Below, piece after piece: positions 19,545-48,958 of a DNA stretch of 64,000 nt. How positions within the stretch are numbered: the first letter of the stretch is position 1; every line of letters starts with the position of its first letter. The notes beneath the pieces are model-generated. The model ran no database searches, was not told where the DNA came from, and was given only the letters and a program-made list of their open reading frames with translations. The translations under genes were made by a program, and so were the position numbers. Source of the stretch: Candidatus Babeliales bacterium (lineage in GTDB: Bacteria > Babelota > Babeliae > Babelales > JANWKD01); contig CAVXJH010000003.1 of the NCBI GenBank assembly GCA_963762115.1, forward strand, positions 256,001 to 320,000, read 5' to 3'.

Positions 19545-19886
19545 CTAATCACCCTTAGATTTTAAACGGGCAGGCTCAAACATAAGAACTAACGATCTTT
19601 CTTCTGCCTTAGGTTTGTGTTGAAGCCCCTTAGGTATAACAGCTCCTTGATTTTCTTTCAAATCAATTGATCCTTTTTCAGTATCAATGGTAATTTTACC
19701 CTTGGCAACTAGAAAAAACTCATCATCTTCATCATGACTATGCCAATGAAAATCGCCCTTAAATGCGGCAGCACGAACGACCCAATCATTAATCCGAGCA
19801 ACTTCAATAGGACTCCAATAGTTTTCACCTATTTTTTCATTAATACTATCAAGATCATAAAATTGTAAAAATTTTTTAATATCCAT
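19545..19886 (-). CDS. Cupin domain protein
   Basis: GDFHWHSH..DDEFF and IPKGLQHKP cupin motifs. Confidence 0.9.
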   Translation of the reverse strand: MDIKKFLQFYDLDSINEKIGENYWSPIEVARINDWVVRAAAFKGDFHWHSHDEDDEFFLVAKGKITIDTEKGSIDLKENQGAVIPKGLQHKPKAEERSLVLMFEPARLKSKGD

Positions 19887-19909: not shown

Positions 19910-20680
19910 TTATAACGTAACAAATATTTCTTTTCCAGCGGAAACTTTCAAATAATCTCGCGCAGAACCCTGATTAACCGCAATCTCAAGCGTGTTATTA
20001 CTTCCTTTATAACAAAGCAATTGCCCCTGCTTAACCTTATCAAATGTTATTACAAAGGGTACTTCCAAAGATTTATCATCTATCTTCAAATGTATTAACC
20101 TATCAAACCATGTAGGATCAACTTGTATATTAGTTTTAATGTTGCCAAAACTATCTATGTAAGTAATAATTTTTTGCGTTTCTAAACTATCGCACAACGT
20201 AATATCTTTTTTATCAATCGGCAAAAGAGCATTCGTATTATTTTGTGCCAGTTGAATTGCAATCGGCGTAAAAATATCTCTACCATGAAAGGTATTCGAT
20301 TTTTCCGGGAAACATGCTTCATTAATTTTAAACACTTTTACACCCTCTTGTTTCAAAATATAATGAAACAAGCCATTATTTGGCCCAATAAACGTATATG
20401 ATCCAAGTTTTACTACCAAACCATTCCGTTCGGTGCCAACGCCCGGATCAACAACCGTAATAAAATAACTATTTTCAGGAAAATAGGCATAGACCTTTTC
20501 GAGCACAAATGCCCCACTGACAATACAAAATTTTTCTATGGAATGATCAATATCAATAACCGAACAATGAGGAATTTCACGCAATAAGGTAGCCTTTATG
20601 GAGGCAACCGCAAAATCAAGCCCAAAATCCGTTAATAAACCAAAAGTAATATTTGTATTTTTTGAAGATAACAAATTCAT
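19910..20680 (-). CDS. SAM hydroxide adenosyltransferase (SAM-dependent chlorinase/fluorinase family)
   Basis: LLTDFG, VVDPGVGTER, GPNNG, TFHGRDIF, IDSFGN, LEIAVNQGSA. Confidence 0.93.
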   Translation of the reverse strand: MNLLSSKNTNITFGLLTDFGLDFAVASIKATLLREIPHCSVIDIDHSIEKFCIVSGAFVLEKVYAYFPENSYFITVVDPGVGTERNGLVVKLGSYTFIGPNNGLFHYILKQEGVKVFKINEACFPEKSNTFHGRDIFTPIAIQLAQNNTNALLPIDKKDITLCDSLETQKIITYIDSFGNIKTNIQVDPTWFDRLIHLKIDDKSLEVPFVITFDKVKQGQLLCYKGSNNTLEIAVNQGSARDYLKVSAGKEIFVTL

Positions 20681-20717: not shown

Positions 20718-20748
20718 AACAAAAGCACATCCCAAAAGGGATTCGCTT
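20718..20748 (-). terminator. Candidate attenuator hairpin between the Met-rich leader and SAM hydrolase
   Basis: Minus strand AAGCGAATCCC-TTTT-GGGATGTGCTT followed by T-rich tail. Confidence 0.5.
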
Positions 20749-20784
20749 ATAAAAAAATAATTGTGGAAAAGAAGATATATGGCC

Positions 20785-20883
20785 TTAGGCCATCATATAA
20801 AGAAGAGAAAATGACATAACCATGAATGCCAAGAACAAAATTTTGCTTGTCTGTGAAAAACAGGAAATAATGTTAAGATTCAT
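20785..20883 (-). CDS. Putative Met-rich leader peptide (32 aa)
   Basis: MNLNIISCFSQTSKILFLAFMVMSFSLLYMMA*; GAGGTG RBS; promoter directly upstream. Confidence 0.6.
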   Translation of the reverse strand: MNLNIISCFSQTSKILFLAFMVMSFSLLYMMA

Positions 20884-20922
20884 AGTCACCTCAAAGGGTT
20901 GAATTGTTAAATACTCTATTAA

Positions 20923-20951
20923 ATTCTAGAAAACAAATTCAAATTTGTCAA
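20923..20951 (-). promoter_or_regulatory. Sigma70 promoter upstream of the Met-rich leader
   Basis: TTGACA-17 nt-TAGAAT on the minus strand. Confidence 0.65.
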
Positions 20952-21109
20952 TTTTTCAAAAGTCAAAGACATACAGAACAATTTTTTGTATCCTCAGGAT
21001 ATTATTGACGCTTAGAATATTTTATAATTAATAAACATATACTTTTTCTGTATTAATGATAAAACAAGTATCTATATACCTTTATATCGTTATAGAAAGA
21101 AAACATGCT

Positions 21110-22448
21110 ATGAATACGTTTAATAAACTATTAGCAATAGCTATACTAACCTGTACTCTTGGTACTATAACCTTAGGATTTAGTATTTTTAATACAAAAA
21201 ATACTAATACGATGCCAGTCAAAAACATTATTGTTATTGGAACTGGGGCAGCTGGCATAGGTTTTATACATGAAATACTAGAACAAAAAACTCTTGCTCA
21301 CATTACCTGGATAAGCTCTGATAATCATAATCCCTATGATCGAACTAAATTAGATTCAGTAGTTTCGCAAGAAATCTCAGAAAATGCCCCTACTCTCTTT
21401 GATAAAAAGAGTAACAACATTGATCTTCTCTTGGGTAAAAAAAGTAATATCTCTTGATGCTCAGAAAAAAATAGTAGCCTTAGATGATAAAAGCACTTAT
21501 TGCTATGATTATCTTTTTTTAGCAACAGGCTCAACGCCTAATGATCTTTTCCCGGAATCTCCCAAAGCTCAATCAATTAAAGGGATTTTTAATTTTCACA
21601 CCCTAGAAGATGCAAAAAATATTAATGCTTACATCAAGCAAAATACTATAACCGATGCGACAGTAATAGGTTGTGGCATTAATGGTCTTGAAGCAGCTGA
21701 TGCACTTTTTAGACGCGGTATAAAAGTTACTATTATTGATAGAAATGAACATATTTTACAAAATACTATTAATATCGAAGCTTCTCTAGCAATTGAAAAA
21801 AATATAAAAAATATATCTTCTATCACCTGGTATCCAAAATCTTCACTTAAAAATATCATACAAAAAAACGGCAATCTGGAAGGCATAGAACTTACTGATG
21901 GCAAAATAATTAAAACAGCGCTCATAATTAGTACTATTGGTGTAAAACCAAATATATATCTTGCAGAACAAAATGGCTTAACAATAAAAAATAATGCTTT
22001 AATAGTAGATAACACTATGAAAACAAGCGATCCATCAATTTATGCCGGCGGTGATATTATTTTGATATACGATAAAGGCACAAATACCCTCATTAAAAGC
22101 TGTAAGTGGGGAGATGCAGTAAAACAGGGTCATATCGCAGCAAGCAATATACTTGGTATAGAAAAAAAGTATCAAGGTTCCCTAATAGGCTATCGAACAT
22201 CATTCTTTGGTAATACTCTTGTTATGAGTGGGCTATTAAAAAATTACCCTACACAGTACAAAACAATTGAACAATCAGGTATAGATGATATGGGTAAACT
22301 TTTTTATCACAAAATAATCTTAGATAACAATATCATCAAAGGTTTTATTCTCTGTAATAACACGCAATCAGCAAGACGATTACGCAGAGCACTCGAAGAT
22401 CAAACACCATTTAATCATGAACGATTTTTAAGAAGATATAGCAAATAA
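21110..22448 (+). pseudogene. NAD(P)/FAD-dependent oxidoreductase (NADH oxidase/NirB-N type) with a frameshift
   Basis: IGTGAAG in the first ORF; LATGS, IGCGINGLE, TSDPSIYAGGD in the second; frames join at the A7 run 21437-21443. Confidence 0.75.
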
Positions 22449-22526
22449 AATAACTGTACAATTAAGTTGCTGTCAAAAAAAATTCTAATATTTGTGCAAT
22501 CGTGCAACTATTTTTAGATTGAGCAG

Positions 22527-22555
22527 TTGAATTTTAAATTTATTCATGCTAATAT
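22527..22555 (+). promoter_or_regulatory. Putative sigma70 promoter
   Basis: TTGAAT-17 nt-TAATAT with an extended -10 TG. Confidence 0.45.
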
Positions 22556-22596
22556 GGTTATATCTTATTAGAATAAAAATAGTAATAGAGGATAGA

Positions 22597-22680
22597 ATGC
22601 CCATGAACAGCATACTTTTTTCATCCCCGAAACCTTTCCATACCACATACCCAATAGGGTATCTTTGGCTTTGCCAATAA
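22597..22680 (+). CDS. Possible leader peptide (27 aa)
   Basis: MPMNSILFSSPKPFHTTYPIGYLWLCQ*; GAGGA RBS; hairpin plus T-run at 22762-22786. Confidence 0.35.
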   Translation: MPMNSILFSSPKPFHTTYPIGYLWLCQ

Positions 22681-22859
22681 ATACCTTCCTCATAGGCTCT
22701 ATCTTACCTATTCTTTATTTTCCAATTTTCCTTATCTGACTTTTCCTTTTTGGTTAAACCATTGGGCGTAAGCCCGAATATTTTTTGCGGCTAATAACCG
22801 GATTTAAAAACTTTTTTGTTAAAAAATAGTGGTATTTTCCAAAGTTAAGGAAATTTTTT

Positions 22860-23720
22860 ATGAAGAACATTACTTTATTATCTTGTATAGTTTTATTAAT
22901 CAGTTATTCATGTTTTATAAAGGGCATGGAATCAGACATCGAATATAGACAAGCAACCAATGATGATACTGTTGGCATTGTAGATCTGATTAATACTTAT
23001 GCATATAAAGATAATGATAAAATCGTTATCGTTCCAGAAGCATTTCGTGCAGCATACATACAAAGTGCAATCCAAACCAAAAGGCTTTTTGTTGCTTCTA
23101 ATGACAAAACAATTGTTGGCTACAAAAAATTATTTTGTATAACTGACGAACATGAATGCAATGATATTTTAAATAATGAACTACGCTGCACAGAAGATAC
23201 TTCTGCAGGATGTGCATTAATATCTGCGCATGATGAATCTACACAAGATTTTTTACCTGAACAACTAACAACAATCATGTCATTGCCAATAACCTACATT
23301 TATAACGGAGCAGATTTCACCCACCCTCAATATCGTGCACAAGGTATTAATAGCTCTTTAACCAAATATGCACTTGAAGCAACTTCAGATGCAGTGCGTA
23401 AAGATATTGAGAAAAAAAAGAGTACCTATCTTGCCATGGTATATGGATTGACCAAGTCAAATGCCGGTGCCAGCATCGTGGATGGCCGAACTCATGGTAT
23501 TTTTAAACAGTTTGTTTCATTTGCGCAGGCAATAACACATACATTAAAGTGTGCCGAACCATCCCAAGTAATTCTTAGTAGGCATCATGCATTTAAACCT
23601 TCATTTGATCCTAAAGCTACAGAATGCAAGCCTCTCTCAGATAGTCAATCTATTCCAGGATATGGATATCTTGTAGCTTGTGCTTTGGATCAAAACTCCA
23701 ATGAACGAGGTGATCTATGA
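22860..23720 (+). CDS. Signal-peptide GNAT-fold acetyltransferase-like protein
   Basis: IEYRQAT..D start, LFVA...IVGY, THPQYRAQGINSSL acetyl-CoA motif A. Confidence 0.65.
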   Translation: MKNITLLSCIVLLISYSCFIKGMESDIEYRQATNDDTVGIVDLINTYAYKDNDKIVIVPEAFRAAYIQSAIQTKRLFVASNDKTIVGYKKLFCITDEHECNDILNNELRCTEDTSAGCALISAHDESTQDFLPEQLTTIMSLPITYIYNGADFTHPQYRAQGINSSLTKYALEATSDAVRKDIEKKKSTYLAMVYGLTKSNAGASIVDGRTHGIFKQFVSFAQAITHTLKCAEPSQVILSRHHAFKPSFDPKATECKPLSDSQSIPGYGYLVACALDQNSNERGDL

Positions 23721-24883
23721 TTACCTTGCTACAAAAATATTTAGAAATTAATACTGCACATCCACATCCTCAGTATCACGCTGCTATTGCATTGTTTAAA
23801 AAGCAAGCAGAAAATGATGGTTTTTTGGTTACTGAACTTATTCTTCCTTCCGGCAATCCCGTGCTTATTATTACCTTGCAAGGCAGTTGTCTTGAAATGC
23901 CTGCCCTTGCATTAAATCATCATATGGATGTTGTTCCAGCTGATAATAAAGATGAATGGCTATTTAATCCATTTGCAGGAACAGTTCATGAAGATTATAT
24001 CTATGGAAGAGGTACACAAGATTGTAAAGGTCTTGGTGTAGTTCAATATGCAGCATTAAAAATGCTTAAGCAAAGCGAATTACAATCGGCAAGGACGATT
24101 CATTATATTATGGTTCCTGATGAAGAGCGCGGTGGATTTCATGGCATGAAAGAATTTGTTGAACATCCATTATTCGCATCATTTAACATAGGATATGTTT
24201 TAGATGAAGGCCTGCCTTCAGGAGATGATAACGAATTGCTCATTAAGATTGATGAACGTACGCCAATACAAATATGCATAACAAGTAGAGGGCAACAAAG
24301 CCATGCATCAGGATTACTTAATAAAAATTGCATTCATGAATTGACTAATTTTCTGGCAAATATTGCGGCATTTCAATCCAAACAACAACAAGAAGTTGCA
24401 TTGAATCAAGCCGGGCATCATATTTCAATGCATATTACTTCATTAAGTACAAATAATACTGCATTGAATGTTATTCCTACGCAAGCGCAAGCTACGCTTG
24501 ATATGCGCATACCATCGCACTTGTCTTTGGATTACGGAATTTCTTTAATAGATGAATTAATACAAAAACATACGAGTACTACCTATGAAATTTTAGCAAC
24601 AAGTCAGGAACGTTTTAAAATAATTAAAGAAGATTCAATGTTTTACCAAACACTTGCCCAAGCTGTTACTGATCATGGCATTAGTCCAAAATCTTTTGCA
24701 TTTGAAGCGACAACTGATGCCAGATTTTATAGCCACAAAGGCATTCAAGCAATTGGGCTTACGCCATTCACGGTTACGCCAAACTTACATGGTACTAATG
24801 AAAGTATTTATATAAACGATTTGGTGCAAGGAACCGCAGTTTTATATACCTTTTTACGTGCATTTTGCACATTAAATAATTGA
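23717..24883 (+). CDS. M20 family aminoacylase (ACY1-like N-acyl-L-amino acid amidohydrolase)
   Basis: LNHHMDVVP, GRGTQDCK, PDEERGG, LDEG, TDARFY, LHGTNE. Confidence 0.88.
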   Translation: MITLLQKYLEINTAHPHPQYHAAIALFKKQAENDGFLVTELILPSGNPVLIITLQGSCLEMPALALNHHMDVVPADNKDEWLFNPFAGTVHEDYIYGRGTQDCKGLGVVQYAALKMLKQSELQSARTIHYIMVPDEERGGFHGMKEFVEHPLFASFNIGYVLDEGLPSGDDNELLIKIDERTPIQICITSRGQQSHASGLLNKNCIHELTNFLANIAAFQSKQQQEVALNQAGHHISMHITSLSTNNTALNVIPTQAQATLDMRIPSHLSLDYGISLIDELIQKHTSTTYEILATSQERFKIIKEDSMFYQTLAQAVTDHGISPKSFAFEATTDARFYSHKGIQAIGLTPFTVTPNLHGTNESIYINDLVQGTAVLYTFLRAFCTLNN

Positions 24884-24895
24884 TAAGGAAAAAAA

Positions 24896-25891
24896 ATGAA
24901 AAAACTAATTATACTATTATTAGTGATTACAGGCGCAATCACTTTTTATTATGCCAAGCAGCACCTACTTGAAAAAGAAGAGCAAACAAATACTCAACAA
25001 TTGCATATTGCACTCTTTACCCCGATAGCACATCCAGCACTTGAAGAAATTGAACAAGGCTTTAAAGAAAAGTTACAACAACTAAACTTAAAGCAATGCG
25101 TTTTTACAACATTCAATGCTAATGGCAACAGAACATTATTGCGAGCACAAGCAGAAGAAATTGTGCAAGGTAATTATGATCTAATATTTTCCATGGGAGC
25201 GATGTGTTCACAAACGATTGCTGAGCTGCTGAAGAAAAAAAACCTCGAAACGCCGCATGTGTTTGCTGGTGTTGATGGTCCTGAGTTTGCTCTTTCATTA
25301 CAATCTTTGAATGAATCAACCACAGGCGTTTATGTAAAATCAGATTATGAACAAGAGCTCAGCATTCTTTTTAAACTTAAACCGGACACAAAAAACATTC
25401 TTCTTGCATACGATCCAACCCATGGTGTCGGTTTAGAAAAACAAAAGAACGAAATCGAAGAATATAGCAAAAAACATGGTGCAACATTACACAGCGTTGA
25501 AATTTATCAAACAAATGAAATTCAACAAAAGGTTGCAGCATCATTATCTAATATAGATGTTGTGCTTGTGCTTACTGATAACACAGTGGTTGCAGGCGTT
25601 GATGCTCTTATTGCATTATGCAATCGATTTGGCGTTACTTTGATGGCATCAGATTTGCCGTCAGGGAAAAAAGGCGCTGCATTATCCTACGGAATAAGTG
25701 AATACGAATCAGGTACTGGCGCTGCGCAAAAAGCACAGATGATACTACAACAAAATAAAAAACCACATGAAGTTCCCGTAACCGCCATAACTAATTTCCG
25801 ACTCCACATCAATAAAGACACCATGAAAATGCAGAATTTGACTCTTGATCATGAGACTTTAGAACAATTAGAAAAGGAGATCTCATGTTGA
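24896..25891 (+). CDS. ABC substrate-binding protein (TrpX-like aromatic amino acid family)
   Basis: HPALE, NANG, TDNTVV, INKDT pattern; N-terminal anchor. Confidence 0.85.
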   Translation: MKKLIILLLVITGAITFYYAKQHLLEKEEQTNTQQLHIALFTPIAHPALEEIEQGFKEKLQQLNLKQCVFTTFNANGNRTLLRAQAEEIVQGNYDLIFSMGAMCSQTIAELLKKKNLETPHVFAGVDGPEFALSLQSLNESTTGVYVKSDYEQELSILFKLKPDTKNILLAYDPTHGVGLEKQKNEIEEYSKKHGATLHSVEIYQTNEIQQKVAASLSNIDVVLVLTDNTVVAGVDALIALCNRFGVTLMASDLPSGKKGAALSYGISEYESGTGAAQKAQMILQQNKKPHEVPVTAITNFRLHINKDTMKMQNLTLDHETLEQLEKEISC

Positions 25892-26766
25892 ACACCTTGC
25901 TCGTTATTATCGAGCAAACCATGTTGCACTTACCGTTAATGTTTGGAGCTTATGTAAGTTTTTCATTATTAAAAGTCCCCGATTTAAGCATTGAAAGCGC
26001 TTATGTGGTTGGTGCAATTTTAGGTTCATCCGCTCTGATCAATATTGTAAATGTTCCTATGAGTATGATGATTTTCATCATACTCATGGCCAGCTTTCTT
26101 GGTGGAGCACTGGTAGGCATGACTTCAAGTTTGCTTACTCAAAAAGCTAAATTTCCCCATTTACTAAGCAGCATTGTTACCTTTGGTTTATTCCATGGTA
26201 TTAATCAGTTTATTTCAGCAACGTATGTTTCGTTAAGTAAAATAGATAATCCGCTTAGATTGCTTAACGGTATAACTCAATATCCTGAACTGCCCGTGCT
26301 CATTGTGATCGGTTGCCTTATTACAAGTCTTATGTATGCATTATTTAAAACACAACTTGGTTATGCATATGCAGTCTATGGCAACAATTCACAATTTTTT
26401 AAAAATTATGGCACCTCAACATCATTTGTATTTATTACCGGCATTATGATTGCCAATGGCTTGGCTGGCATAAGTGGTTATATGTTTGCACAATCAAACA
26501 ACTTTTTTGAACTTAATATGGGCCTTGGCAAGGCCCTTCTGTGCATCACAGCGCTTATCCTAGGAAAAGGCATACTGCACACAAAAAAACCGTTTTCAGT
26601 TGCTGTACCATTAGTTGGAACAGGTGCCTACTTTTCATTACAACAGTTACTGCTTAAAGTTGGGTTCAATTTAAAATATTTTACTGCCGTGCAAGCATTG
26701 TTGGTATTATGCATTTTGGTATATACCTTCCGAAAACAACCATGCAACGATAATTTGGGGGTATGA
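25885..26766 (+). CDS. ABC permease (TrpY-like)
   Basis: PDLSIESAY, KTQLGY, ANGLAGISG, multiple TM. Confidence 0.85.
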   Translation: MLNTLLVIIEQTMLHLPLMFGAYVSFSLLKVPDLSIESAYVVGAILGSSALINIVNVPMSMMIFIILMASFLGGALVGMTSSLLTQKAKFPHLLSSIVTFGLFHGINQFISATYVSLSKIDNPLRLLNGITQYPELPVLIVIGCLITSLMYALFKTQLGYAYAVYGNNSQFFKNYGTSTSFVFITGIMIANGLAGISGYMFAQSNNFFELNMGLGKALLCITALILGKGILHTKKPFSVAVPLVGTGAYFSLQQLLLKVGFNLKYFTAVQALLVLCILVYTFRKQPCNDNLGV

Positions 26767-27461
26767 CTATGTTTATTAAACATCTTTCATTTAAATTTAA
26801 CAAAAAGAGTGCTCAATCCTTTTTTCAGAATATAACAATCGCATTTGCACCCAATAAGGTCCATTTTATTCAAGGTGATAATGGTGTGGGAAAATCAACA
26901 TTTTTCAATATACTACAAGGAGCCATCGGAAAAGATGCTTACTTAGAGGCATCTATACAGTTGGATGGCACCACATTTAACACACACAATACTATGTTGC
27001 CGCATGTATTTACACAACAGGTGCACGTAGTGCAGCAAAATTATGATAGTATGATTGCAAATCAATTTACCTTCATGGAAAATTTGCAATTGGCAAACTT
27101 ACCTATGTATCCACATTTAAAACCACTACCTCAAGCAACATTGTTTGATGTCATTAAAACATTAGGCATAGATCCACATAAACCTGCTTATCTTTTATCA
27201 GGCGGCCAACGCCAATTATTGGCAATACTCATGGCATTACAAAAAACAACAAAACTATTATTACTTGATGAACCAACGGCGACCCTTGATAAAAAAAATG
27301 CGGATCTCATTATGCAATGCCTATTTCAACTTGCAGAGCAACTCAAGGTAACTATGCTGATTATTTGCCACGATAAAGAACTGGTGAAACAATATGCACA
27401 GGAAAATAATTTTGTTATTCAACAGTTAGAAGATGGTACGCGAATGATACATAAAACCTAA
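26763..27461 (+). CDS. ABC ATP-binding protein
   Basis: GDNGVGKST, LSGGQRQ, LLLDEPTATLD. Confidence 0.92.
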   Translation: MTMFIKHLSFKFNKKSAQSFFQNITIAFAPNKVHFIQGDNGVGKSTFFNILQGAIGKDAYLEASIQLDGTTFNTHNTMLPHVFTQQVHVVQQNYDSMIANQFTFMENLQLANLPMYPHLKPLPQATLFDVIKTLGIDPHKPAYLLSGGQRQLLAILMALQKTTKLLLLDEPTATLDKKNADLIMQCLFQLAEQLKVTMLIICHDKELVKQYAQENNFVIQQLEDGTRMIHKT

Positions 27462-27575
27462 AAATAGTATCCGATGTGTAATAATTAAAGCTGGGTTATT
27501 ATTTTAATTATTATTAAATGTATTATACTTGTATTAATCGAATATAATTTTCAAGATAAACAGTTAGGAAAACAT

Positions 27576-28558
27576 ATGCATAGAAAGAAAAAATTATCCA
27601 AATTATTTTTTATATCATTATTAATGTGTACTGCACTATTAAATGGCATGGAAGAAAAAAAAAACAATTTTTCATGTGATTTATTTAATACAAAAAAATC
27701 AGAATTACAAGCAATACCCCGTAAATGCTGTAAGCAGTATAAAAAATTATCAAAAATAGATAATACATCACTAACAACACTCTATGCATGGAGAGGAAAT
27801 GCCACGCCGCTGCTATATATGCCTCAAGAATATTTTGATTCAACGCAAAATGATTCTATGAACTTGAAAGCATTGTTTGAAAACTGTCAATTAGTTTCTG
27901 ACAACAATGTATTTATGCTCCATGATGAACCTAAGCCATGGGTGGAAAAAGAGCACAAGGGCAAGAGGATTTTTTACCTCGTTTGTATCAACCAAGAATT
28001 TCTTTAGATGCACTGCCGCAGCTATTACATAATGCAAAATCTATTCTTAAAGCCTTTTTACCTAGCGAAGAATTTATTTTTGACAAACAAAAATTTATTC
28101 AAAAAGGCGGTGCCATAGATCGGCTTTTTACCTATGCTAAACTGCAGCGCACTATTCAAGAAAAACAATTGTCGAATGTTTCTCTTCCACGAAAATTACT
28201 TATTATACAAGATAAAGAAAGTGGTAAATATATTGATAGTCAAAGCGCTCAAAATATTTTAGATGATGCACTAAAAATTGCTGTTTTGTATTCAAGTGCC
28301 GTTGAAATCAAAATGAATTGTTATTCACACAAATATGCTTTACTGATTTTTGCAGAAAGAAAAATAAACCATAACACACCATTAAATCAAGCAGCATTCG
28401 AAGATTTAAAAACACTCACTGCTGAAGCGCCATTTGATGTTGGCTATGATAATATTTTTAGTGATGAAAATGGCAATGCAATTGTTATAGATTCAGAATT
28501 TAAGGGCGAACCAGCTGAAACTTCCATACTAAAATTGAATCGATATAAACACAATTAA
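27576..28558 (+). pseudogene. Secreted hypothetical protein, probably one gene split by a frameshift
   Basis: Signal peptide (..LLNG-MEE) ORF 27576..28007 overlaps 27938..28558 in another frame across a T6 run (about 27970); no clear RBS for the second ORF. Confidence 0.5.
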
Positions 28559-28597
28559 TCAAGATTTTAAAGTATCTCTTTTGACAACTTCGTACAC

Positions 28598-28641
28598 GGA
28601 TGAAGGAGAAGCCGCTGCTTAACAAAGCTTCTCCTTCATCC
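28598..28641. terminator. Strong hairpin between convergent genes
   Basis: GGATGAAGGAGAAGC / GCTTCTCCTTCATCC 15-bp inverted repeat. Confidence 0.6.
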
Positions 28642-28649
28642 ATGGTTAT

Positions 28650-30023
28650 TTACTGCACACTTCTTTTTTTTACTTCTTGAGCAATTTCATACATACGATG
28701 AGTCATAGCTGAAAGCCCTTTTGGATCCATTAAAAGATAAAAATTCATAACCGTGTTTTTATCTTTATTCACGGTATCATATTCAATAATATCAGAATGT
28801 AAAACCACTCTTGATTGAACATACGGCAATAATTCCTTGTATTGTTCCTGTAATTCCATAACAGAATAATCACCAGCTTTAACACCAAGCATTTGTGAAA
28901 CATAACACCATTGTTCAGCTTTCTTTCGCGGTATCATCATTTGTAATAATCCTGCACTTGCTTGTTTTTCATAGTCATGGAGCTCAGCTTTATATTTTTC
29001 ATAAAGATCTTCTGCACCATAGTCTTTGAATATCTGCTGTATAATTGTTGTATCAACATCCTTTGCCAAAGTATCAAATAACATAGGCAAATAAACAACA
29101 TCAGAAGGATTTTTAATAAGAGCACTCACAATTTTTGGAAGAACCATCACTTGCGACATGAGCAGACCAACAACATTTAAAGAAACATCAGCAGTTTGAT
29201 ATGCCCACGAACACGGCTTTGCAATAAATTCTATGCTTGACTCTTTTCTTGGATTATTTATCCATGAAGTATTCCCATACAATCCTGCATTAACACTGAG
29301 AAGCTCTTCTCGATTATCAGTAAGATCCATATAAACCATCTCATTTCCTGTTGGAACTGGGTTACCATAAAGTATAACCCGCATTTCTTTAACCCGTGGT
29401 GCTTTTTTATAACGATCATCGTAATATTCTTGTGCATTTGCTTGTTGTATTTTGTTTTTTGCTTTTTGCACATCTCTTATTTGCACAAAATGTTCTTTAG
29501 GAGCATCATGCAAAACTTCATCGAAAATAGTTCTTAAAAGCATTGATGCACCTTTATGCGTTCCATGCACACAGCAGAAATAATCCTGCTCTTTATAAAC
29601 ACCCTCTTCATGACAAACATATTCAGTAAGATTATTCAATTCTTTGCGCATCTTAGGCATTACCACCCAACTTTCAGCTAATGAAAGCCTATTTATTTGC
29701 GCTCTACTCAAAATGGATCTATCACTAGGCGTAGCTAACGATAACACACTATCATGGTTAATCTGATCCTTTGTTACCGATGCCACGATTTTTTTCTCTT
29801 TATAATGCGCAAGAAGATTACTCACTTTCTTAGGTGTGGCTGGCGAACTTACTTCAATCATCTCTCGTGCATCATAACAATCTGCGACATATGCTGCCGC
29901 TGTTAAAATCCCCAGCGTTGCAATCTCTTTTTTATGAAGATACAGTTTTTCCATACCCAAAAGAGCATTACTTAATAACAACAAGATGAATGGCATACAC
30001 CACTTTATAAGTTTTAATATCAT
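28650..30023 (-). CDS. Secreted hypothetical protein (457 aa)
   Basis: Long ORF, AAGGA RBS, signal peptide ending LLG-MEK; no family recognised. Confidence 0.8.
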   Translation of the reverse strand: MILKLIKWCMPFILLLLSNALLGMEKLYLHKKEIATLGILTAAAYVADCYDAREMIEVSSPATPKKVSNLLAHYKEKKIVASVTKDQINHDSVLSLATPSDRSILSRAQINRLSLAESWVVMPKMRKELNNLTEYVCHEEGVYKEQDYFCCVHGTHKGASMLLRTIFDEVLHDAPKEHFVQIRDVQKAKNKIQQANAQEYYDDRYKKAPRVKEMRVILYGNPVPTGNEMVYMDLTDNREELLSVNAGLYGNTSWINNPRKESSIEFIAKPCSWAYQTADVSLNVVGLLMSQVMVLPKIVSALIKNPSDVVYLPMLFDTLAKDVDTTIIQQIFKDYGAEDLYEKYKAELHDYEKQASAGLLQMMIPRKKAEQWCYVSQMLGVKAGDYSVMELQEQYKELLPYVQSRVVLHSDIIEYDTVNKDKNTVMNFYLLMDPKGLSAMTHRMYEIAQEVKKRSVQ

Positions 30024-30173
30024 AGTTTTATTCCTTTAAACGTATTACTACGTATTTTTATCGTTCTATTTATATACATACAAGGTAATCAACATTTTCA
30101 CGAAAAAAGACGTGAAGGTGCCGGACACAATGATCACGAATTAAGATCGCAATCACCATTCATTAAAAAATAA

Positions 30174-30326
30174 TTAAAAACTAAAGGGAAAGAAAAAAGA
30201 AAAAAATGGACAGGGAAAAAGAAGAGTAGATTTGAATGAAAGATGTGGCGAAATATTCAGGAGCATTTTTGCTTCTATCCTGAGCTTTCTTTTATTAGAT
30301 TCGCAAGGTTTTTGTTGAGATAACAT
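30174..30326 (-). CDS. Putative Phe-rich leader peptide (50 aa)
   Basis: MLSQQKPCESNKRKLRIEAKMLLNISPHLSFKSTLLFPCPFFSFFFPFSF*; AAGGAAGG RBS; TTGACA-16 nt-TAAGCT at 30402-30375. Confidence 0.55.
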   Translation of the reverse strand: MLSQQKPCESNKRKLRIEAKMLLNISPHLSFKSTLLFPCPFFSFFFPFSF

Positions 30327-30549
30327 GACCTTCCTTTTCTTTAAAATGGTAAAAATAATACATGCTTGTGTATAAGCTTACAATATATAAATTTAATGTC
30401 AATATGAAATTAAATGTTTTTTAAAATTACAATATCAAATCAGGATTATTCTTAAATTTTCAAAAAAAAATTTCTTCTACTTTAAAGCTTATCTATAACC
30501 AAAAAACTAGTTCTTGCTATTTGTATTATTTAATGGTATAAATAATAAT

Positions 30550-30696
30550 ATGAAGATTAAAAAACCTACTATTCACAACTCATCCTTAGGTGCTAAAGCT
30601 TGTGGCCTTAACAGAGCCAAAAGCCAGAATTGCGCCCTTTCTTATATCAATTCTTATTATTTTTATTTTATATATGAGGGGTCGCATTATGCCTAA
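30550..30696 (+). CDS. Putative Tyr-rich leader peptide (48 aa)
   Basis: MKIKKPTIHNSSLGAKACGLNRAKSQNCALSYINSYYFYFIYEGSHYA*; followed by a terminator. Confidence 0.65.
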   Translation: MKIKKPTIHNSSLGAKACGLNRAKSQNCALSYINSYYFYFIYEGSHYA

Positions 30697-30731
30697 ATTA
30701 TAAATTTGAAAAATTATAAGGCAATTTGCGC

Positions 30732-30764
30732 AAAACCCCCGTTAAAAAACGGGGGTTTTTTTTT
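30732..30764 (+). terminator. Attenuator terminator upstream of ilvE
   Basis: AAAACCCCCG-TTAAAAAA-CGGGGGTTTT stem plus T9, lying between the leader and the CDS. Confidence 0.85.
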
Positions 30765-30813
30765 GCCAAAAACTTACATGTTGTTGTTAACAATTAATAA
30801 AAGGAAAACAAAG

Positions 30814-31713
30814 ATGAATCAATCAGTTATATGGCTTGACGGAACCTTAGTTCCATGGGATCAGGCTACAATTCACCTAATGACCCACACATTGCATTAT
30901 GGTTCAGGAGCTTTTGAAGGCATTCGATGCTATGCAACAGAACAAGGTCCCGCAATTTTCAGATTATCTGATCATGTTGATAGATTATTGCATTCATTTT
31001 CTTGTTTTGGCACCAAAATTCCCTGGACAAAAGCAACATTAGAACAAGCAATTATTGATACAATAAAAGCAAATAAACTTGATAACTGTTATATCCGCCC
31101 TCTTATTTTTTTTGGATCAGAATCACTCTTATTAAGTCCAAAAAACTTATCGGTTCATTGCGCTATTATTGTTATTGGCATGGATAAATATTTAGGAAAA
31201 GAAGCTATCAATGTTGGCATTTCTTTGATTAGACGTATTAACCCTCAATCAGTGCCAATACATAACAAAATAAATGGTTATTACGTTAATTCTATTTTTG
31301 CTTTTCATGAAATAAAAGATCGTGGATTTGATGAAGCCTTATTGCTCGATCATGAAGGAAATATCTCAGAAGGCTCTGTAGCTAATATATTTTTCGTTAT
31401 TGATGGCATACTCAAAACACCACCCCCCACATCAATTTTGCCGGGCATAACACGTGCATCAGTATTAACTATTGCTCAAAAATTAAATATTAAAACCAGT
31501 GAAGAAACAATAACCTTGCATGATATTACCCGAGCAACAGAAGCATTTTTTACCGGAACAGCAAGCGAAATTACATCAATTAAACAAATTGAACAAAAAG
31601 AATTTTCATTAACTCAAAATAAATTCACACAAAAAATAAAGAATTCTTATCATAATTGTATAACAGGAAAAGATACCTCTTTTAAATCTTGGTTAACACA
31701 TATTAATAATTAA
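30814..31713 (+). CDS. ilvE: Class IV (branched-chain-type) amino acid aminotransferase
   Basis: THTLHYG.GAFEG, YIRPL, KINGYY, EGSVANIF, ILPGITR, FFTGTASE; start moved to MNQSVIW (AAGGA RBS). Confidence 0.92.
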   Translation: MNQSVIWLDGTLVPWDQATIHLMTHTLHYGSGAFEGIRCYATEQGPAIFRLSDHVDRLLHSFSCFGTKIPWTKATLEQAIIDTIKANKLDNCYIRPLIFFGSESLLLSPKNLSVHCAIIVIGMDKYLGKEAINVGISLIRRINPQSVPIHNKINGYYVNSIFAFHEIKDRGFDEALLLDHEGNISEGSVANIFFVIDGILKTPPPTSILPGITRASVLTIAQKLNIKTSEETITLHDITRATEAFFTGTASEITSIKQIEQKEFSLTQNKFTQKIKNSYHNCITGKDTSFKSWLTHINN

Positions 31714-31738
31714 TCGTTATATAAGAAAAGGACCCCAT

Positions 31739-32704
31739 ATGAAAAAAATGATTTTGATTATAGTAATCATAATAACAGTTGTTACGAGCTTTATTATTAT
31801 TAAACGTACAAAAAAAACAGGCTCACCAACCGCCCTCACTATTGGCATACTGCAAACAGCATCACATCCAGCACTCGATGCTTCTCGTGATGGTTTCATC
31901 GAAGAATTAAAAAACAAAATGGGCAACAACATTGAATTTATCACTCAAAATGCACAAGGCTCAGTAGCTCAATCTCATGCAATCGCACAACAATTTCATG
32001 CTAACAAAAATATTACAGGATTCTTTGCAATTGCTACCCCTGCAGCGCAAGCCATGAGTGCTCTTGAAAAAGAAAAGCCTATTTTTATTGCCGCGGTAAC
32101 TGACCCCAATGCTTTAGGGTTATTACATCCAACAACAAATGTATGTGGTGTTAAAGATATGATTAATGTTAAAGCTGAAATAGAAATGCTTACTCAATTA
32201 ATACCTCATGCAAAAACAATTGGTCTCATCTACACTTCAGGAGAAACAAATTCAATTGCTTTAACACAACAAATGCAGGCGGAACTTGAAGCACAAGGAT
32301 TAAACCCTGTTAGTTTTGCAATAAGCAATGAATCAGACATACAAGCCATAGTTGAGTTAGCATGTAGAAAAACTGATGTTATCTTGGCTCCGACGGACAA
32401 CACCATCGCGTCGGCTATTAGCCTCATTGCAGAAATAACAATCAAAAACAAGAAGCCTTTAATAGTGAGTGATAATATGCTCGTTAAATTTGGCGCACTC
32501 GCTGCACGAGGGGTTGATTATAAAGCAAGTGGCAAAAAAGCAGCACAAATCGCTTATGAAGTACTCGTTAACAAAAAAAAGCCACATGAGCTACCCGTTG
32601 AACAAGCACAAAGCGAACAAATAGTTATTAATAAAAATACTCTAAAAACTCTCGAATTAACCATTCCTGAGTCTTTAAAAAAACATATTACTTTAATTTC
32701 GTAA
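31739..32704 (+). CDS. ABC substrate-binding protein (TrpX-like)
   Basis: QTASHPALD, NAQGS, IATPAAQ, AVTDP, PTDNT. Confidence 0.9.
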   Translation: MKKMILIIVIIITVVTSFIIIKRTKKTGSPTALTIGILQTASHPALDASRDGFIEELKNKMGNNIEFITQNAQGSVAQSHAIAQQFHANKNITGFFAIATPAAQAMSALEKEKPIFIAAVTDPNALGLLHPTTNVCGVKDMINVKAEIEMLTQLIPHAKTIGLIYTSGETNSIALTQQMQAELEAQGLNPVSFAISNESDIQAIVELACRKTDVILAPTDNTIASAISLIAEITIKNKKPLIVSDNMLVKFGALAARGVDYKASGKKAAQIAYEVLVNKKKPHELPVEQAQSEQIVINKNTLKTLELTIPESLKKHITLIS

Positions 32705-32712
32705 GGAAAAAT

Positions 32713-33672
32713 ATGAATTATAAAAAAATTGGATTAATCATTCTAACTCTTATAGCAGTAACAAGCGTTACGCTAGTGATCAGAAAAAAACAACCTACCA
32801 TAAAAAATGGTATTACCATAGGCATACTACAAACAGCATCACATCCCTCTCTAGATGAAGCTCGAGAAGGATTTGTTACCCTCATCAAGAAAAAATTAGG
32901 GAATAATATTAATTTCATAATTCAAAATGCTCAGGGATCGATTGCTAATGCTCATTCAATTGCTCAGCGCTTTCATGCAAGCAATGGTATTAAAGCCATT
33001 TATGCTATAGCAACTCCTGCCGCACAAGCTATCGCTGCCATTGAAAAAGAAAAACCAATTGTTATAGCAGCCGTAACAGACACAACTCTGTTGCCTAATC
33101 AGTCAAATATTTGTGGTATCAGCGATATGATTGATATACAAAAATTAATTGACATGATACATCAACTCGCACCAAACTTAAAAACTGTGGCACTCCTCTA
33201 TAGTAATGGGGAAGCAAATTCTCTTGTGCAAATTAATCTTATCAAAAATGAGCTAAAAAAAATTAAAATAGATGCACTTGAAATCGGCATTGCACAGGAA
33301 AGCGATATACCAACTGCAGTTTCTATGGCATGTCGTAAATCTGATGCATTGATTTGCCCTGCTGACAACATGCTTGCTTCAGCTATGGAACTTATAGCCT
33401 CTATTGCACTTACCAATAAAAAACCACTTTTTGCCTGCTATAACCAAGCAGTTGTTCAAGGTGCCTTAGCAGCGTATGGAGTTGATTATAAAAATAGCGG
33501 TGAACAAGCAGGAGAAATTACTCTTGCAATACTTACAAAAAACAAAAATCCACGTGATTTTCCACTAGAAAAATCAAAAACTAACAAAATATATATTAAC
33601 AAAAATACGTTAACAACACTTGAATTAACCGTTCCAGAAACATTAAAAAAAGACGTTATTATTTTTGTATAA
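32713..33672 (+). CDS. ABC substrate-binding protein (TrpX-like), tandem paralog
   Basis: QTASHPSLD, NAQGS, IATPAAQ, PADNM; clearly similar to the preceding gene. Confidence 0.9.
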   Translation: MNYKKIGLIILTLIAVTSVTLVIRKKQPTIKNGITIGILQTASHPSLDEAREGFVTLIKKKLGNNINFIIQNAQGSIANAHSIAQRFHASNGIKAIYAIATPAAQAIAAIEKEKPIVIAAVTDTTLLPNQSNICGISDMIDIQKLIDMIHQLAPNLKTVALLYSNGEANSLVQINLIKNELKKIKIDALEIGIAQESDIPTAVSMACRKSDALICPADNMLASAMELIASIALTNKKPLFACYNQAVVQGALAAYGVDYKNSGEQAGEITLAILTKNKNPRDFPLEKSKTNKIYINKNTLTTLELTVPETLKKDVIIFV

Positions 33673-33684
33673 AGGAGAAATAAA

Positions 33685-34530
33685 ATGATTGAATTACTAC
33701 AAATAACACAAGGTATTATTGAACGCGGATTAATTTTCGGCATTATTGTTGCAGCGGTGTATCTTGCATCACGGCTTATTAATTTTGATAATTTAGCAGT
33801 TGAAGGCGCTTTTGGACTTGGCGGCGCCATCACTGCTTTCATAATCAGTTATGGAATTAATCCTTGGATTGGCCTCATTGGAGCATCAATTGCTGGTGCC
33901 CTATCAGGCATAGCTACCGGTTTGCTCAATACTAAATTAAAATTGAATGCATTAATAAGCGGCATCGTTGTTACCACAGGATTATTCTCAATCACCTTAA
34001 AAATAGCAGGATCAAACATGACCTTAGGCGGTAACTCAACTATTTTTAAACTCTTGCCTTCCCTATTAGATCCATATGCATCATTACTCCTTTTAACACT
34101 CATATGCATCATATTATTTTCTCTTATTAATTGGTTTTTAAAAACAGAAGTTGGATTCTTGCTGCATGCAGTTGGTGATACACCGCAAATGCTTACTAAC
34201 GTTGGTAAAAGCATAGATGGTTATACAATTTTAGGACTAACGCTCTCTAACACATTAGCAGCATTAAGCGGCGCATTGTTTGTTCAATATGCCGGTTATT
34301 TTTCAATTTGGGCCAGCGTTGGCGTTTTAATTATCGGATTGGCTGGCATGATACTAGCCCAAACCTTCAGTGCAAGCTTTGGAGTTGCCATTCTAATCGG
34401 CTCCATTGCCTACCAAGCAATTATTGCACTTACTTTTGAATTACAACTTGATCAAGATTGGAACAAATTAATTACAGCATTACTTATTGTTCTCTTACTC
34501 ATAATAAAACAACAACTCAATAAAAAATAA
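33685..34530 (+). CDS. ABC permease (TrpY-like)
   Basis: DNLAVEGAFGLG, KTEVGFLL.AVG, SNTLAALSG. Confidence 0.88.
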   Translation: MIELLQITQGIIERGLIFGIIVAAVYLASRLINFDNLAVEGAFGLGGAITAFIISYGINPWIGLIGASIAGALSGIATGLLNTKLKLNALISGIVVTTGLFSITLKIAGSNMTLGGNSTIFKLLPSLLDPYASLLLLTLICIILFSLINWFLKTEVGFLLHAVGDTPQMLTNVGKSIDGYTILGLTLSNTLAALSGALFVQYAGYFSIWASVGVLIIGLAGMILAQTFSASFGVAILIGSIAYQAIIALTFELQLDQDWNKLITALLIVLLLIIKQQLNKK

Positions 34531-34540
34531 GGTAATAACC

Positions 34541-35290
34541 ATGTTAAAACTTAAAAATATTAATGTATCATTTGGCAATAACCATATTTTACGTAATCTT
34601 TCTTGCGATGTGCAACCAGGCGATTTCATTGTCATTGTAGGAGCCAATGGCGCAGGGAAAAGCACTTTTTTTGATACCATTGCCGGTAAAATCAAACCCA
34701 AAAATGGCTCAATCACCCTTGATAATGCTGATATAACTCAATTAAATGAGCAGCAAAGATCTGGTATGATTACCCGCATTTTTCAAAACACACGCTTAAA
34801 TTCAGTAGGATCATTCACCGTAAAACAAAATCTTGCTATAGCACAATATAGCCGCCGCAATGCACGCCTTGTTAACGGCATGCAAGCAATGCCCAACGAG
34901 CGAGCAGAACAATTAATACTAAATCTCGGTATGGATCCTTCCATTTTAGAAAAACCTATGAATGCACTATCAGGCGGCCAAAGACAACTTATTGCCTTTG
35001 TGATGGCAACGCAACTCACCCCTAAAATACTCTTACTTGACGAGCCTACTGCAGCCCTTGATCCTCAAGCTGCTACAAAACTTCTTCACTATGCCGCACA
35101 ATTTATTAAACAACATCATATCACTACCTTATTGATAACTCATGATCCACATATTGCCCTAAATATAGGTAATAAAATTTGGATTTTAGAAAATGGTACA
35201 ATTTCCAGACAATTTTCATCAGAGGAAAAGAAAAATTTAAATCCTGATAAACTTATTGGCCAAATTGATTATGAAAAAATTGCTCAATAG
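34541..35290 (+). CDS. ABC ATP-binding protein
   Basis: GANGAGKST, LSGGQRQ, LLLDEPTAALDP, ITHD. Confidence 0.94.
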   Translation: MLKLKNINVSFGNNHILRNLSCDVQPGDFIVIVGANGAGKSTFFDTIAGKIKPKNGSITLDNADITQLNEQQRSGMITRIFQNTRLNSVGSFTVKQNLAIAQYSRRNARLVNGMQAMPNERAEQLILNLGMDPSILEKPMNALSGGQRQLIAFVMATQLTPKILLLDEPTAALDPQAATKLLHYAAQFIKQHHITTLLITHDPHIALNIGNKIWILENGTISRQFSSEEKKNLNPDKLIGQIDYEKIAQ

Positions 35291-35408
35291 AGATAAAACG
35301 TGTTTTTATAATATTTAACGTCAATTTGAAACATTTGTTACAATTTTTTATTTTTATGGTGCTATTTTAATAGTAGTTATTTATTTATTACTTTATAAGG
35401 AGTTAATC

Positions 35409-35561
35409 ATGTTATCCAACATGCAAACTAATAATTTCACTCAATCCCCCCAGGGGTCTTCTCAAAGATCTTTACGTGCTTTCCCTGCACTTTTTTCCCC
35501 TTCAATCATCACCCCTGATTCTAGCTTTTATTACCTATCTTTTTATTATTATTGCGTCTAA
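35409..35561 (+). CDS. Putative Tyr-rich leader peptide (50 aa)
   Basis: MLSNMQTNNFTQSPQGSSQRSLRAFPALFSPSIITPDSSFYYLSFYYYCV*; AAGGAG RBS; 13-bp hairpin over the YYY codons and stop. Confidence 0.65.
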   Translation: MLSNMQTNNFTQSPQGSSQRSLRAFPALFSPSIITPDSSFYYLSFYYYCV

Positions 35562-35747
35562 CGCAATAATAATCTCACAAATTACTAAATATTTATTTTT
35601 AAACATTTTTAGATTTATCCAATATTTCTTTATAACAATTTTGCATCATCTAAAAAAATAATATTTTTTAGTAAATTTATTTTTTATAATTACCATTTTT
35701 CAAATTTATTTTAACTATAAAATTTAAACCTAATAAGGAAGCACTTT

Positions 35748-36764
35748 ATGCATTTAAAAAATATTTTTATATTAGTATTAATAGCTATTTCTATCTTGAG
35801 TTGTTTTCATAGCTATAAAAAAAGAAATAACAAAAACACACTTGCTCAGAAAATCTATACGATATTTGAACAGCACTTAGTCACCTATGATATTGATGAG
35901 CGGAGTATTAGCGCGAATGTAGATACAAACGACCAACCTATATCAGGACAACAACTTTTTATCAATCAGATTTGCAAGCATATGCAGACACACAAACCAA
36001 TTACAATGCTCTTAATTGGATTTCCTTTCAAAGCCGTTAATACTGAAAAAAAAGTTATTAGTAGATTACCCGATATGGCAGAACGAAGATCACTTGAATA
36101 CCTACAAACGATGCTGGATAAGATCAAGTTGGTTTATGAACCTGGTGCACAAATAACAATTTTTTGTGATGGCGTTCAATTTGCCGAATTTTTTGAAATA
36201 CCACTCGAAGATGTAGAGCATTATGAACAAACACTAAAAATACTCATAAAGGACTTACCGAATATTAAGCTTTACTGCTCAGCAGAATTTATCGAAGATA
36301 ACAATCTAAATCATGCATCAGAAATTAATACTGTTATCGATCAATATGACCCTAGTACCGAAAATTTCAAAAAAAATTTACCACCAATACTAGAGCTTGC
36401 CAAAAGGCGCATTAGTTTGGATTTTGATTGCAAAAAAAGCAAAAAAGTCTTGGAACATCATTCGCTTGATTCTATTGTCATTGATTTATTAGCACGTGAA
36501 GCAAGGTTACGCAATTATATTACTAAAATGTTTCCAGCTGAAAAATTCATTCGTCTAACCGTACATTTCTCTCAGGATATAAGCAAAAAATTTGGCATAA
36601 AAGTTTCACCTTCGTCATACATTACGCCTTATCATGGAGTACTTGTACAAGACAAAAATAACAATTGGAAAATTCAATTTAAAAAAGATGTTGACACGAC
36701 TAAATACAAAATAACATCAACAATGATTAACGGCATTCGATGCCCATATTTTATAGAAATTTAA
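35748..36764 (+). CDS. Isocyanide synthase family (PvcA/IsnA/Dit1) protein with N-terminal hydrophobic segment
   Basis: GFPFKAVN..KV...LPDMAE, YEPGAQITIFCDG, IRLTVH, KFGI, TPYHGV. Confidence 0.85.
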   Translation: MHLKNIFILVLIAISILSCFHSYKKRNNKNTLAQKIYTIFEQHLVTYDIDERSISANVDTNDQPISGQQLFINQICKHMQTHKPITMLLIGFPFKAVNTEKKVISRLPDMAERRSLEYLQTMLDKIKLVYEPGAQITIFCDGVQFAEFFEIPLEDVEHYEQTLKILIKDLPNIKLYCSAEFIEDNNLNHASEINTVIDQYDPSTENFKKNLPPILELAKRRISLDFDCKKSKKVLEHHSLDSIVIDLLAREARLRNYITKMFPAEKFIRLTVHFSQDISKKFGIKVSPSSYITPYHGVLVQDKNNNWKIQFKKDVDTTKYKITSTMINGIRCPYFIEI

Positions 36765-36799
36765 TTTTTATTTTTACCATTAAAGTTAAGGAAATAATC

Positions 36800-43992: not shown

Positions 43993-44044
43993 ATCTATAC
44001 TCCTTTTTTTATTATTTTATATCATAAATTTTCATTACCACGAA

Positions 44045-44905: not shown

Positions 44906-44928
44906 ATTCGTAGCTCCTTAAAAAAGTT

Positions 44929-45801: not shown

Positions 45802-45846
45802 AAACTTCCTTTTTCTAAGACGTTACTAAAAATATCAACCCAAAAC

Positions 45847-46740: not shown

Positions 46741-46913
46741 TTACTCCTTTTTTTAAATGATTATTATTTCTTAGTTTAAGATAGTAAGAACTAATAAAAT
46801 TAAACAATAATTTTGTAAGAATATGTAAAAAAAGAGCGAATAACCGGTCCTAGATAACTAAAAAAAATCGTACTAAGCATTATGAAAAATCATCATTAAA
46901 AATTAAAAAAAAG

Positions 46914-47034
46914 CTTGACAAATTCTATTTGCACGATCTGGCTATTTTTAATATAAATTGTTGACTATTTGTAATTTATAGGTATACTGAGAATAAAGAA
47001 AGTTATAAAATACCTAAAAAAAGGGCTAAAACTT
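46914..47034 (+). promoter_or_regulatory. Duplicated upstream region, copy 1, with sigma70 promoter
   Basis: CTTGACAAATTCTATTTGCA box; TTGACT-16 nt-TATACT (46961-46988); repeated at 47978. Confidence 0.75.
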
Positions 47035-47892: not shown

Positions 47893-47900
47893 CATTAAAT

Positions 47901-47937
47901 AAAAGCCTGAATAATAAAAAAACTATTCAGGCTTTTA
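47901..47937 (+). terminator. Terminator hairpin
   Basis: AAAAGCCTGAATA / TATTCAGGCTTTT. Confidence 0.7.
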
Positions 47938-47977
47938 GCCCTATTATTCTTTTTCCCTATCAAACCTGTAAATATAC

Positions 47978-48940: not shown

Positions 48941-48958
48941 AAAACCAAGGATTATCTA

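Follow-up and report, generated by a model that had tools for sequence, protein, structure and literature searches.

The 64-kb stretch of Candidatus Babeliales DNA analysed here (positions 256,001 to 320,000 of contig CAVXJH010000003.1, assembly GCA_963762115.1; hereafter the window, to which coordinates refer unless another contig or locus is named) carries five upstream open reading frames (uORFs) that very probably act as amino-acid sensors for the genes behind them. An earlier note, made from the letters of this DNA, had listed them as leader peptides, and all five are present with ATG starts: a Met leader (20785-20883, 32 aa) and a Phe-rich leader (30174-30326, 50 aa) on the minus strand, and a Trp leader (22597-22680, 27 aa), a Tyr(/Phe) leader (30550-30696, 48 aa), and a Tyr-rich leader (35409-35561, 50 aa) on the plus strand. 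The distances from stop codon to gene are 104, 150, 179, 117, and 186 nt, respectively, in agreement with the 100-190 nt claimed. In the account that we favour, the uORFs would be translated and would sense charged tRNA in cis: a ribosome stalling on cognate codons under scarcity would turn the downstream operon on, a direction of control that we infer because the targets are importers and salvage enzymes. The single shared design proposed in the note did not hold; there are two designs, that of the 30550 leader (class A) and that of the other four (class B). We consider the whole account, comprising charged-tRNA sensing, a terminator switch in class A, and gating by Rho in class B, to be moderately probable.

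Conservation of the leaders and their match to downstream genes

In 2000 dinucleotide shuffles of each leader's own region, the observed codon count was never reached in the case of the Met, Phe, and two Tyr leaders and was reached 81 times in that of the Trp leader; the test is post hoc, in that amino acid and codon window were chosen after inspection. The earlier note had ranked this fifth uORF as weaker; its relatives support it as a Trp leader. Across 614 upstream regions, a scan for uORFs of at least 40 aa with a Shine-Dalgarno (SD) energy of -4 kcal/mol or better and an enrichment score of at least 2 returned 11 biased uORFs, some of which are ordinary small genes, against a mean of 0.4 in shuffled DNA (maximum 2 in 100 shuffles) and 4 in antisense. 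With a composition rule tuned on the leaders of this genome there were 15 candidates, four of them in the window, against 4.3 in shuffles and 3 in antisense.

Conservation among relatives, which the note had named as a check, was assessed by a fixed rule that picks, upstream of each locus's first gene, the uORF with the best SD or else the longest ATG uORF. The counts include the source genome and come from related genomes, so that they are not independent; the rule also misses some real leaders, such as the Met leader of locus L059. Loci at a contig edge or partial (L024, L030, L035, L041), second pieces of one gene (L072, L075), weak partial matches (L080, L081), and loci with no usable upstream of the first gene (L115, L123, L127) were left out. 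By this rule the uORFs recur across Babeliales. At least two Met codons among the last six are found at 13 of 16 S-adenosylmethionine (SAM) hydrolase loci of the order, the comparison figures being 1 of 69 for homologous loci beyond it and 1 of 102 for the six other sets. A Trp codon among the last six occurs at 14 of 18 loci of one clade of TrpX-like solute-binding proteins (SBPs), against 7 of 69 and 3 of 26 comparison loci, and at least three Tyr codons among the last 16 at 9 of 12 loci of the other TrpX-like clade, against 0 of 18, 0 of 16, and 0 of 69. At BrnQ loci, where the best 30 of 191 genomes were used, 15 of 30 have a long SD-led leader in front.

Five of about eight well-supported leaders do lie within 15 kb, as the cluster described in the note would have it, but the system is order-wide, and the source genome (1.53 Mb in 7 contigs, 95% complete) holds at least three further leaders beyond the window: a Thr leader before an SDF symporter, an Ile/Thr-rich leader before BrnQ, and an Ile leader before a gene of unassigned function that is followed by an I/L/M/V-class tRNA synthetase, which we take to be IleRS. 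Two other uORFs were seen in this genome, one of 60 aa (C5:88234-88416), rich in Leu at its end and with a hairpin across its stop, which precedes an uncharacterised protein and is possibly a Leu leader, and an SD-led one of 18 aa (C6:20166-20222) with five Thr in its tail before mutL, to which no functional link was seen.

No chorismate synthase, no MetK, and no covariance-model match to a T-box were found in this 95%-complete genome, and no Rfam family matched within the window; according to passages of PMC4776705, the Babeliales lineage (TM6) lacks amino-acid biosynthesis. These absences, the conservation, and the match of codon to function support the view of the earlier note that the leaders gate uptake and salvage rather than biosynthesis, but not that they do so by a single mechanism. 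The match itself stands for the Met, Trp, and Tyr importer or salvage loci; it is weak for the two remaining targets in the window, a 457-aa protein and a pair of PvcA-like proteins, whose relatives swap the sensed amino acid.

Leader codon and binding pocket can be compared in the two importer operons. The Trp leader (class B, SD-led, one Trp among its last four codons) precedes a plus-strand operon (22860-27461) for a protein of unassigned function, an M20 aminoacylase-like enzyme, a TrpX-like SBP (24896-25891), a permease, and an ATPase, with predicted Trp uptake. The 30550 leader precedes a second plus-strand operon (30814-35290), for an IlvE-family aminotransferase, two TrpX-like SBPs (31739-32704 and 32713-33672), a permease, and an ATPase, with predicted uptake of Tyr (and Phe). 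In excerpts of PMC6816091, one position of the SBP pocket is Tyr in Tyr and Phe binders and Gln in a Trp binder; in the 31739 protein, residue 261 falls at this position of the alignment. All 13 SBPs that stand under Tyr leaders, four of which were found via the leader itself, have this Trp-excluding Tyr. None of 10 under Trp leaders has it, the residue there being Glu in six, Phe in two, Gln in one, and Ser in one; the SBP at 24896-25891 has Glu where the known Trp binder has Gln. Judged by sequence, the pocket residue agrees with the leader codon and splits the transporter family into predicted Tyr and Trp clades. The second SBP of the Tyr operon (32713-33672) has Tyr where Tyr binders carry an acidic residue; it may bind Phe, which would match the mixture of Tyr and Phe codons in that operon's 30550 leader. 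In genomes G012 and G003 (loci L025 and L027) the Tyr transporter lies under a class B leader and in most others under a class A leader, so that both mechanisms would serve the same gene.

The Met leader (class B, SD-led, four Met in its last 12 codons) heads a minus-strand operon for a SAM hydroxide adenosyltransferase, or DUF62 SAM hydrolase (19910-20680; PF01887 and PF20257), a cupin (19545-19886; PF07883), and an EamA/DMT transporter with two EamA stretches (18572-19465; PF00892) that is a candidate SAM importer by its presumed substrate. On the same strand, a putative sigma70-like promoter, proposed from 11 of 12 consensus matches, lies upstream of the leader (20923-20951). A stop-in-loop hairpin (20779-20793), a candidate pause hairpin of which four consensus pairs are kept in 14 of 14 sequences, is followed by a pyrimidine-rich tract and by a terminator-like hairpin with an imperfect U tail (20723-20748; -12 kcal/mol). 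Hairpins of -10 kcal/mol or better follow 2 of 13 rule-picked Met leaders and are not general in this family, whose consensus holds only the stop hairpin and whose peptides are alike in the last codons only. A 17-nt DNA pattern of the Met end gave 13 matches in 261 genomes, six at known SAM-hydrolase loci and seven by chance, with no new targets. EamA-family proteins import SAM in Rickettsia and Chlamydia (sections of PMC3104491), and DUF62 enzymes yield methionine and adenosine from SAM, the reason for hydrolysing so costly a compound being debated (passages of PMC12120602). Since a leader responsive to Met starvation would control an operon with a SAM hydrolase and an EamA transporter, and no MetK was found, the arrangement suggests methionine salvage from host SAM. 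Two variants were seen among relatives: G042 has a tandem pair of Met leaders (L071:1027 and 1257) before a single SAM hydrolase gene, and in G220 (L063) the Met-led SAM hydrolase is followed, in place of EamA, by a gene of the PF03553 Na+/H+ antiporter family, members of which we take to be methionine transporters.

The Phe leader (class B, SD-led, seven Phe in its last 12 codons) precedes the gene for the 457-aa protein (28650-30023, minus strand), which has no assigned function and a hydrophobic N-terminus that, judged by eye, suggests export. Pfam and NCBIfam gave no match, 6 of 261 genomes have a counterpart, and the AlphaFold model is unusable (pLDDT 42.7, from a 5-sequence alignment), with no usable match in the structure atlas, and a resemblance to ADP-ribosyltransferases noted by eye is not put forward as an assignment; the fold of the Phe region is not significant (z -1.39). 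At the five loci of this family the rule finds a Phe leader in two and an Ile/Val leader in two, the former recurring in G003 and the latter occurring in G020 and G037. The 35409 leader (class B, SD-led, five Tyr in its last 12 codons) has a 13-bp hairpin across its stop codon (35545-35573, plus strand), then a nearly G-free tract and no terminator, and precedes two DIT1/PvcA-family (isonitrile synthase-like; PF05141) proteins with hydrophobic N-termini (35748-38065, plus strand). These score far under the NCBIfam PvcA cut-off and match PDB 3e59 with an E-value of 2.8e-18; among the first 60 relatives PvcA was found in G022 only, without a leader. The gating of secreted proteins claimed in the note holds as far as gene context goes, but which amino acid is sensed varies among relatives, and a starvation-triggered, host-directed programme behind the leaders on the PvcA-like and exported proteins is a guess.

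The class A leader at 30550

We are confident, on the strength of the modelled folds, that class A is a classical terminator/antiterminator attenuator sensing Tyr. Homologues of the 30550 peptide occur in nine other genomes of the 261, in six families, each before the same transporter. The leader has no usable SD (-2.8), and a conserved -35/-10-like promoter (30514-30542, plus strand; the -10 is imperfect here) ends 7 nt before its ATG. Such a promoter stands 6-8 nt before the ATG at 12 of 13 class A loci, and because of this spacing the class A mRNA is probably leaderless. The indels among the ten closest class A ORFs preserve the frame and pN/pS is 0.25-1.12 over six leader pairs, on which grounds the open frame appears to be retained with the peptide constrained only loosely. 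The main Tyr run stops six codons short of the stop codon; the packing of biased codons at the extreme C-terminus, described in the note, is thus not universal.

An intrinsic terminator with a U tract (30732-30764, plus strand; -18 kcal/mol) follows the leader, and in the predicted antiterminator (30677-30741, plus strand) the G-run of the leader's last codons pairs with the 5' C-run of the terminator. When a ribosome is placed on the Tyr run this pairing forms in 13 of 13 class A folds, and when it is placed at the stop the terminator forms. A ribosome stalled on the Tyr run would free the G-run to pair with the 5' arm of the terminator and so permit read-through, and one reaching the stop would cover the G-run and let the terminator form. 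One antiterminator pair shows compensatory change, being GC in six, AU in three, and broken in one of the ten closest sequences, and a terminator of -10 kcal/mol or better is present in 7 of 8 rule-picked class A leaders. A point to the contrary is that RNAalifold found a consensus antiterminator for these ten only, and none for all 13 sequences.

Class B leaders and competing explanations

One proposal covers the four class B leaders of the window together with three found outside it, those for Thr, BrnQ, and Ile. It draws on 53 rule-picked leaders, compared with 75 control picks. All but one are SD-led (52/53), C exceeds G in 49 (37/75 in controls), the sequence downstream is at least 60% pyrimidine in 41 (10/75 in controls), and a stop-in-loop hairpin is present in 25 (4/75 in controls, 62/1384 in ordinary genes), with 12 of 13 Met leaders having one. 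A terminator of -10 kcal/mol or better is present in only 3 of the 53, the window's Met leader being one, so that class B lacks the hallmark of a classical attenuator. Rho and NusG are both encoded in the genome. In the proposal, Rho would load on the long, C-rich leader and on the pyrimidine tract that follows its stop, and the stop-in-loop hairpin would pause RNA polymerase until the ribosome gets to the last codons; a stalled ribosome would then block Rho, and a released one would let Rho terminate transcription within the spacer of 100-190 nt. Such a model would explain both the length of the leaders and the C-terminal position of their sensing codons. By analogy with tnaC and cruR (excerpts of PMC12360218) and with the role of pausing described in parts of PMC1183508, we incline towards Rho-dependent attenuation in class B.

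Several points weigh against it or against the account as a whole. The stop hairpin is missing from 28 of the 53 leaders; in the window it is present by one criterion in the Met (-7.3) and 35409 (-12.3) leaders and absent by the same criterion from the Phe, Trp, and 30550 leaders, so that the hairpin at or just after the stop, which the earlier note gave to all, is borne out in part. The tract after the stop has little G (0.09) and is richer in U than in C (about 0.16); it does not look like a textbook rut site. Fifteen of the 53 leaders, those of BrnQ, were admitted by length and SD and not by codon. The window's Met leader is followed by a hairpin of -12 kcal/mol with a U-rich tail, and the Trp leader by one of -8.9. 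In the SDF set (30 loci from 40 genomes) the Thr leader is found at 1 of the 26 loci with upstream DNA, the source genome's own, the other 25 being without it. Among 11 PvcA-like loci the rule finds at least three Tyr in two, two Tyr in one, and Ile in one, most being without a Tyr leader, and that Tyr shortage should switch on a Tyr-consuming enzyme is counter-intuitive.

Translational attenuation has to be considered first among the alternatives: the 3' codons of the leader would pair with the downstream ribosome-binding site (RBS), a stalled ribosome would free it, and any part played by Rho would be one of secondary polarity. The window's Met and Trp leaders do pair with their own initiation regions (-14.8, reached in 3 of 100 shuffles, and -13.7, reached in 0 of 100), which again weighs against the favoured account; the Met family has a mean pairing of -10.95 against -8.4 for shuffles, and a mycobacterial polycysteine short ORF with RBS sequestration offers a precedent (sections of 10.1101/834739). 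On these models RBS sequestration is possible for the two leaders. For class B at large it is unlikely, since the 53 leaders together give no pairing signal (p 0.12 against other leaders and 0.50 against shuffles, with 6/53 at or below 0.05), the post-stop tract pairs worse with the RBS than in controls, and in folds computed without the leader the SD region is hardly more open (from 0.10 to 0.22 for Met, from 0.15 to 0.15 for Trp). We give still less weight to class B being ordinary attenuation missed by the terminator test, with weak or degenerate intrinsic terminators, perhaps assisted by NusA/NusG, and locus-specific antiterminators. Some class B leaders, among them the Met and Trp leaders of the window, are followed by hairpins (-6 to -19 kcal/mol) whose tails are rich in U, but a hairpin of -10 or better is missing in 50 of 53 and the Met family consensus retains the stop hairpin alone. 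It is very improbable that the peptides themselves act, either as TnaC-type arrest peptides, with the free amino acid as inducer, or as small proteins of the membrane. The class A peptide can be recognised in six families, many leader peptides have hydrophobic C-termini, and induction by Tyr would suit the Tyr-consuming PvcA-like enzyme; against this, the pN/pS values indicate weak constraint, the Met leaders share their last codons and not a conserved arrest peptide, none of the five leader peptides matches a family, and starvation sensing accords with the cognate-codon runs that precede importers. That the ORFs arose by chance in intergenic DNA rich in AT and in pyrimidines, a reading fed by the AT-rich codons for Phe, Tyr, and Ile, by the shuffles equalling the lone Trp leader, and by the seven chance matches to the 17-nt pattern, is scarcely credible, being largely refuted by the fixed-rule conservation test, by family-specific Met and Trp enrichment in G-containing codons, by the in-frame indels of class A, and by the pocket residues.

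Returning to Rho gating, the Met and Thr leaders of the source genome have the stop hairpin and the block following it in common, and this resemblance suggests copying and retuning of a leader between Met and Thr genes. From the common 3' block, and from one exported family standing under Phe in one family and under Ile/Val in another, we put forward a more tentative reading, to which we would not yet commit ourselves. A portable terminator-less cassette (SD, long C-rich ORF, stop-adjacent codons, pause hairpin, pyrimidine tract, and Rho output), copied and retuned by its last codons, may constitute the main amino-acid sensing of Babeliales, including attenuation by Met and Tyr codons, and may place exported and possibly host-directed proteins under the control of starvation for individual amino acids.

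Other features of the window and genome are recorded for completeness. A pyridine nucleotide-disulphide oxidoreductase (21056-22448) is split over two overlapping ORFs, with the break near an A-run at about 21435-21441, by a frameshift or an assembly error; another overlapping pair (27576-28558), without a Pfam match, is possibly a single frameshifted gene. Seven ORFs of similar size (279-297 aa) at 43117-49804, six without a Pfam match and one with a weak Peptidase_M78 match, are possibly an array of paralogues. At least six intergenic copies of a dispersed repeat that carries a small GC hairpin are present (C3:424289, C3:513783, C6:27571, C6:147042, C6:236722, and C6:394246), one of which adjoins a transposase-like gene.

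Relation to known systems

With these leaders, auxotrophic intracellular bacteria that parasitise protists and have reduced genomes gain a predicted, testable regulatory layer, in which leader codons serve as substrate labels for transporters; the Met leader also bears on why DUF62 enzymes hydrolyse SAM, a question posed in passages of PMC12120602. If class B is gated by Rho, it would represent a general terminator-free starvation sensor, missed by terminator-based scans, and could serve as a modular part for sensing. The literature titles searched yielded no account of attenuation by leader peptides in Babeliales or Dependentiae, a search that did not extend to subscription surveys and bioRxiv supplements, in which attenuators with Tyr or Met codons may already be listed; this lineage is not named in the four supplements of PMC4833913, and the TM6 genomics paper (PMC4776705) makes no mention of attenuation.

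Class A fits the type of E. coli trpL, hisL, and pheL, which, as described in parts of PMC1183508, combine a cognate-codon leader with mutually exclusive antiterminator and terminator and a pause hairpin released by the ribosome. It differs from this type in that it senses Tyr, has about 48 codons (14 in trpL), is apparently leaderless, and controls an importer; class B differs in being generally without a terminator. In the uORF-Rho attenuators tnaC, speFL, Bordetella cruR, mgtL, and corL, a ribosome near the uORF stop shields a Rho site, which in cruR lies within the uORF (excerpts of PMC12360218). Systems of the tnaC type respond to free ligand, nascent peptide, or RNA refolding, whereas class B apparently responds to starvation at cognate codons, with the same architecture serving Met, Trp, Tyr, Phe, Ile/Val, and Thr. 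The actinobacterial polycysteine leaders (the "Cys ribulon") likewise have cognate-codon runs near the stop, no terminator, and several operons under ribosome control; Rho has been proposed for them (sections of PMC1262725), and RBS sequestration was shown at one locus (passages of 10.1101/834739). That ribulon concerns one amino acid and leaderless short ORFs, whereas in Babeliales six or more amino acids are concerned and class B leaders are SD-led and long, with no general anti-SD pairing. In Streptococcus suis the same transporter family (trpXYZ) is switched on by Trp shortage via tRNA charging, through a T-box (excerpts of PMC9382623), in whose place the Babeliales genome, with no T-box found, has a translated leader by our account. 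There is accordingly a precedent for each ingredient, in classical attenuators, terminator-less polycysteine leaders, and uORF-Rho switches; what is new is the lineage, the sensing by Met and Tyr codons, an attenuator of classical type that is probably leaderless, and a single design without a terminator that serves six amino acids or more.

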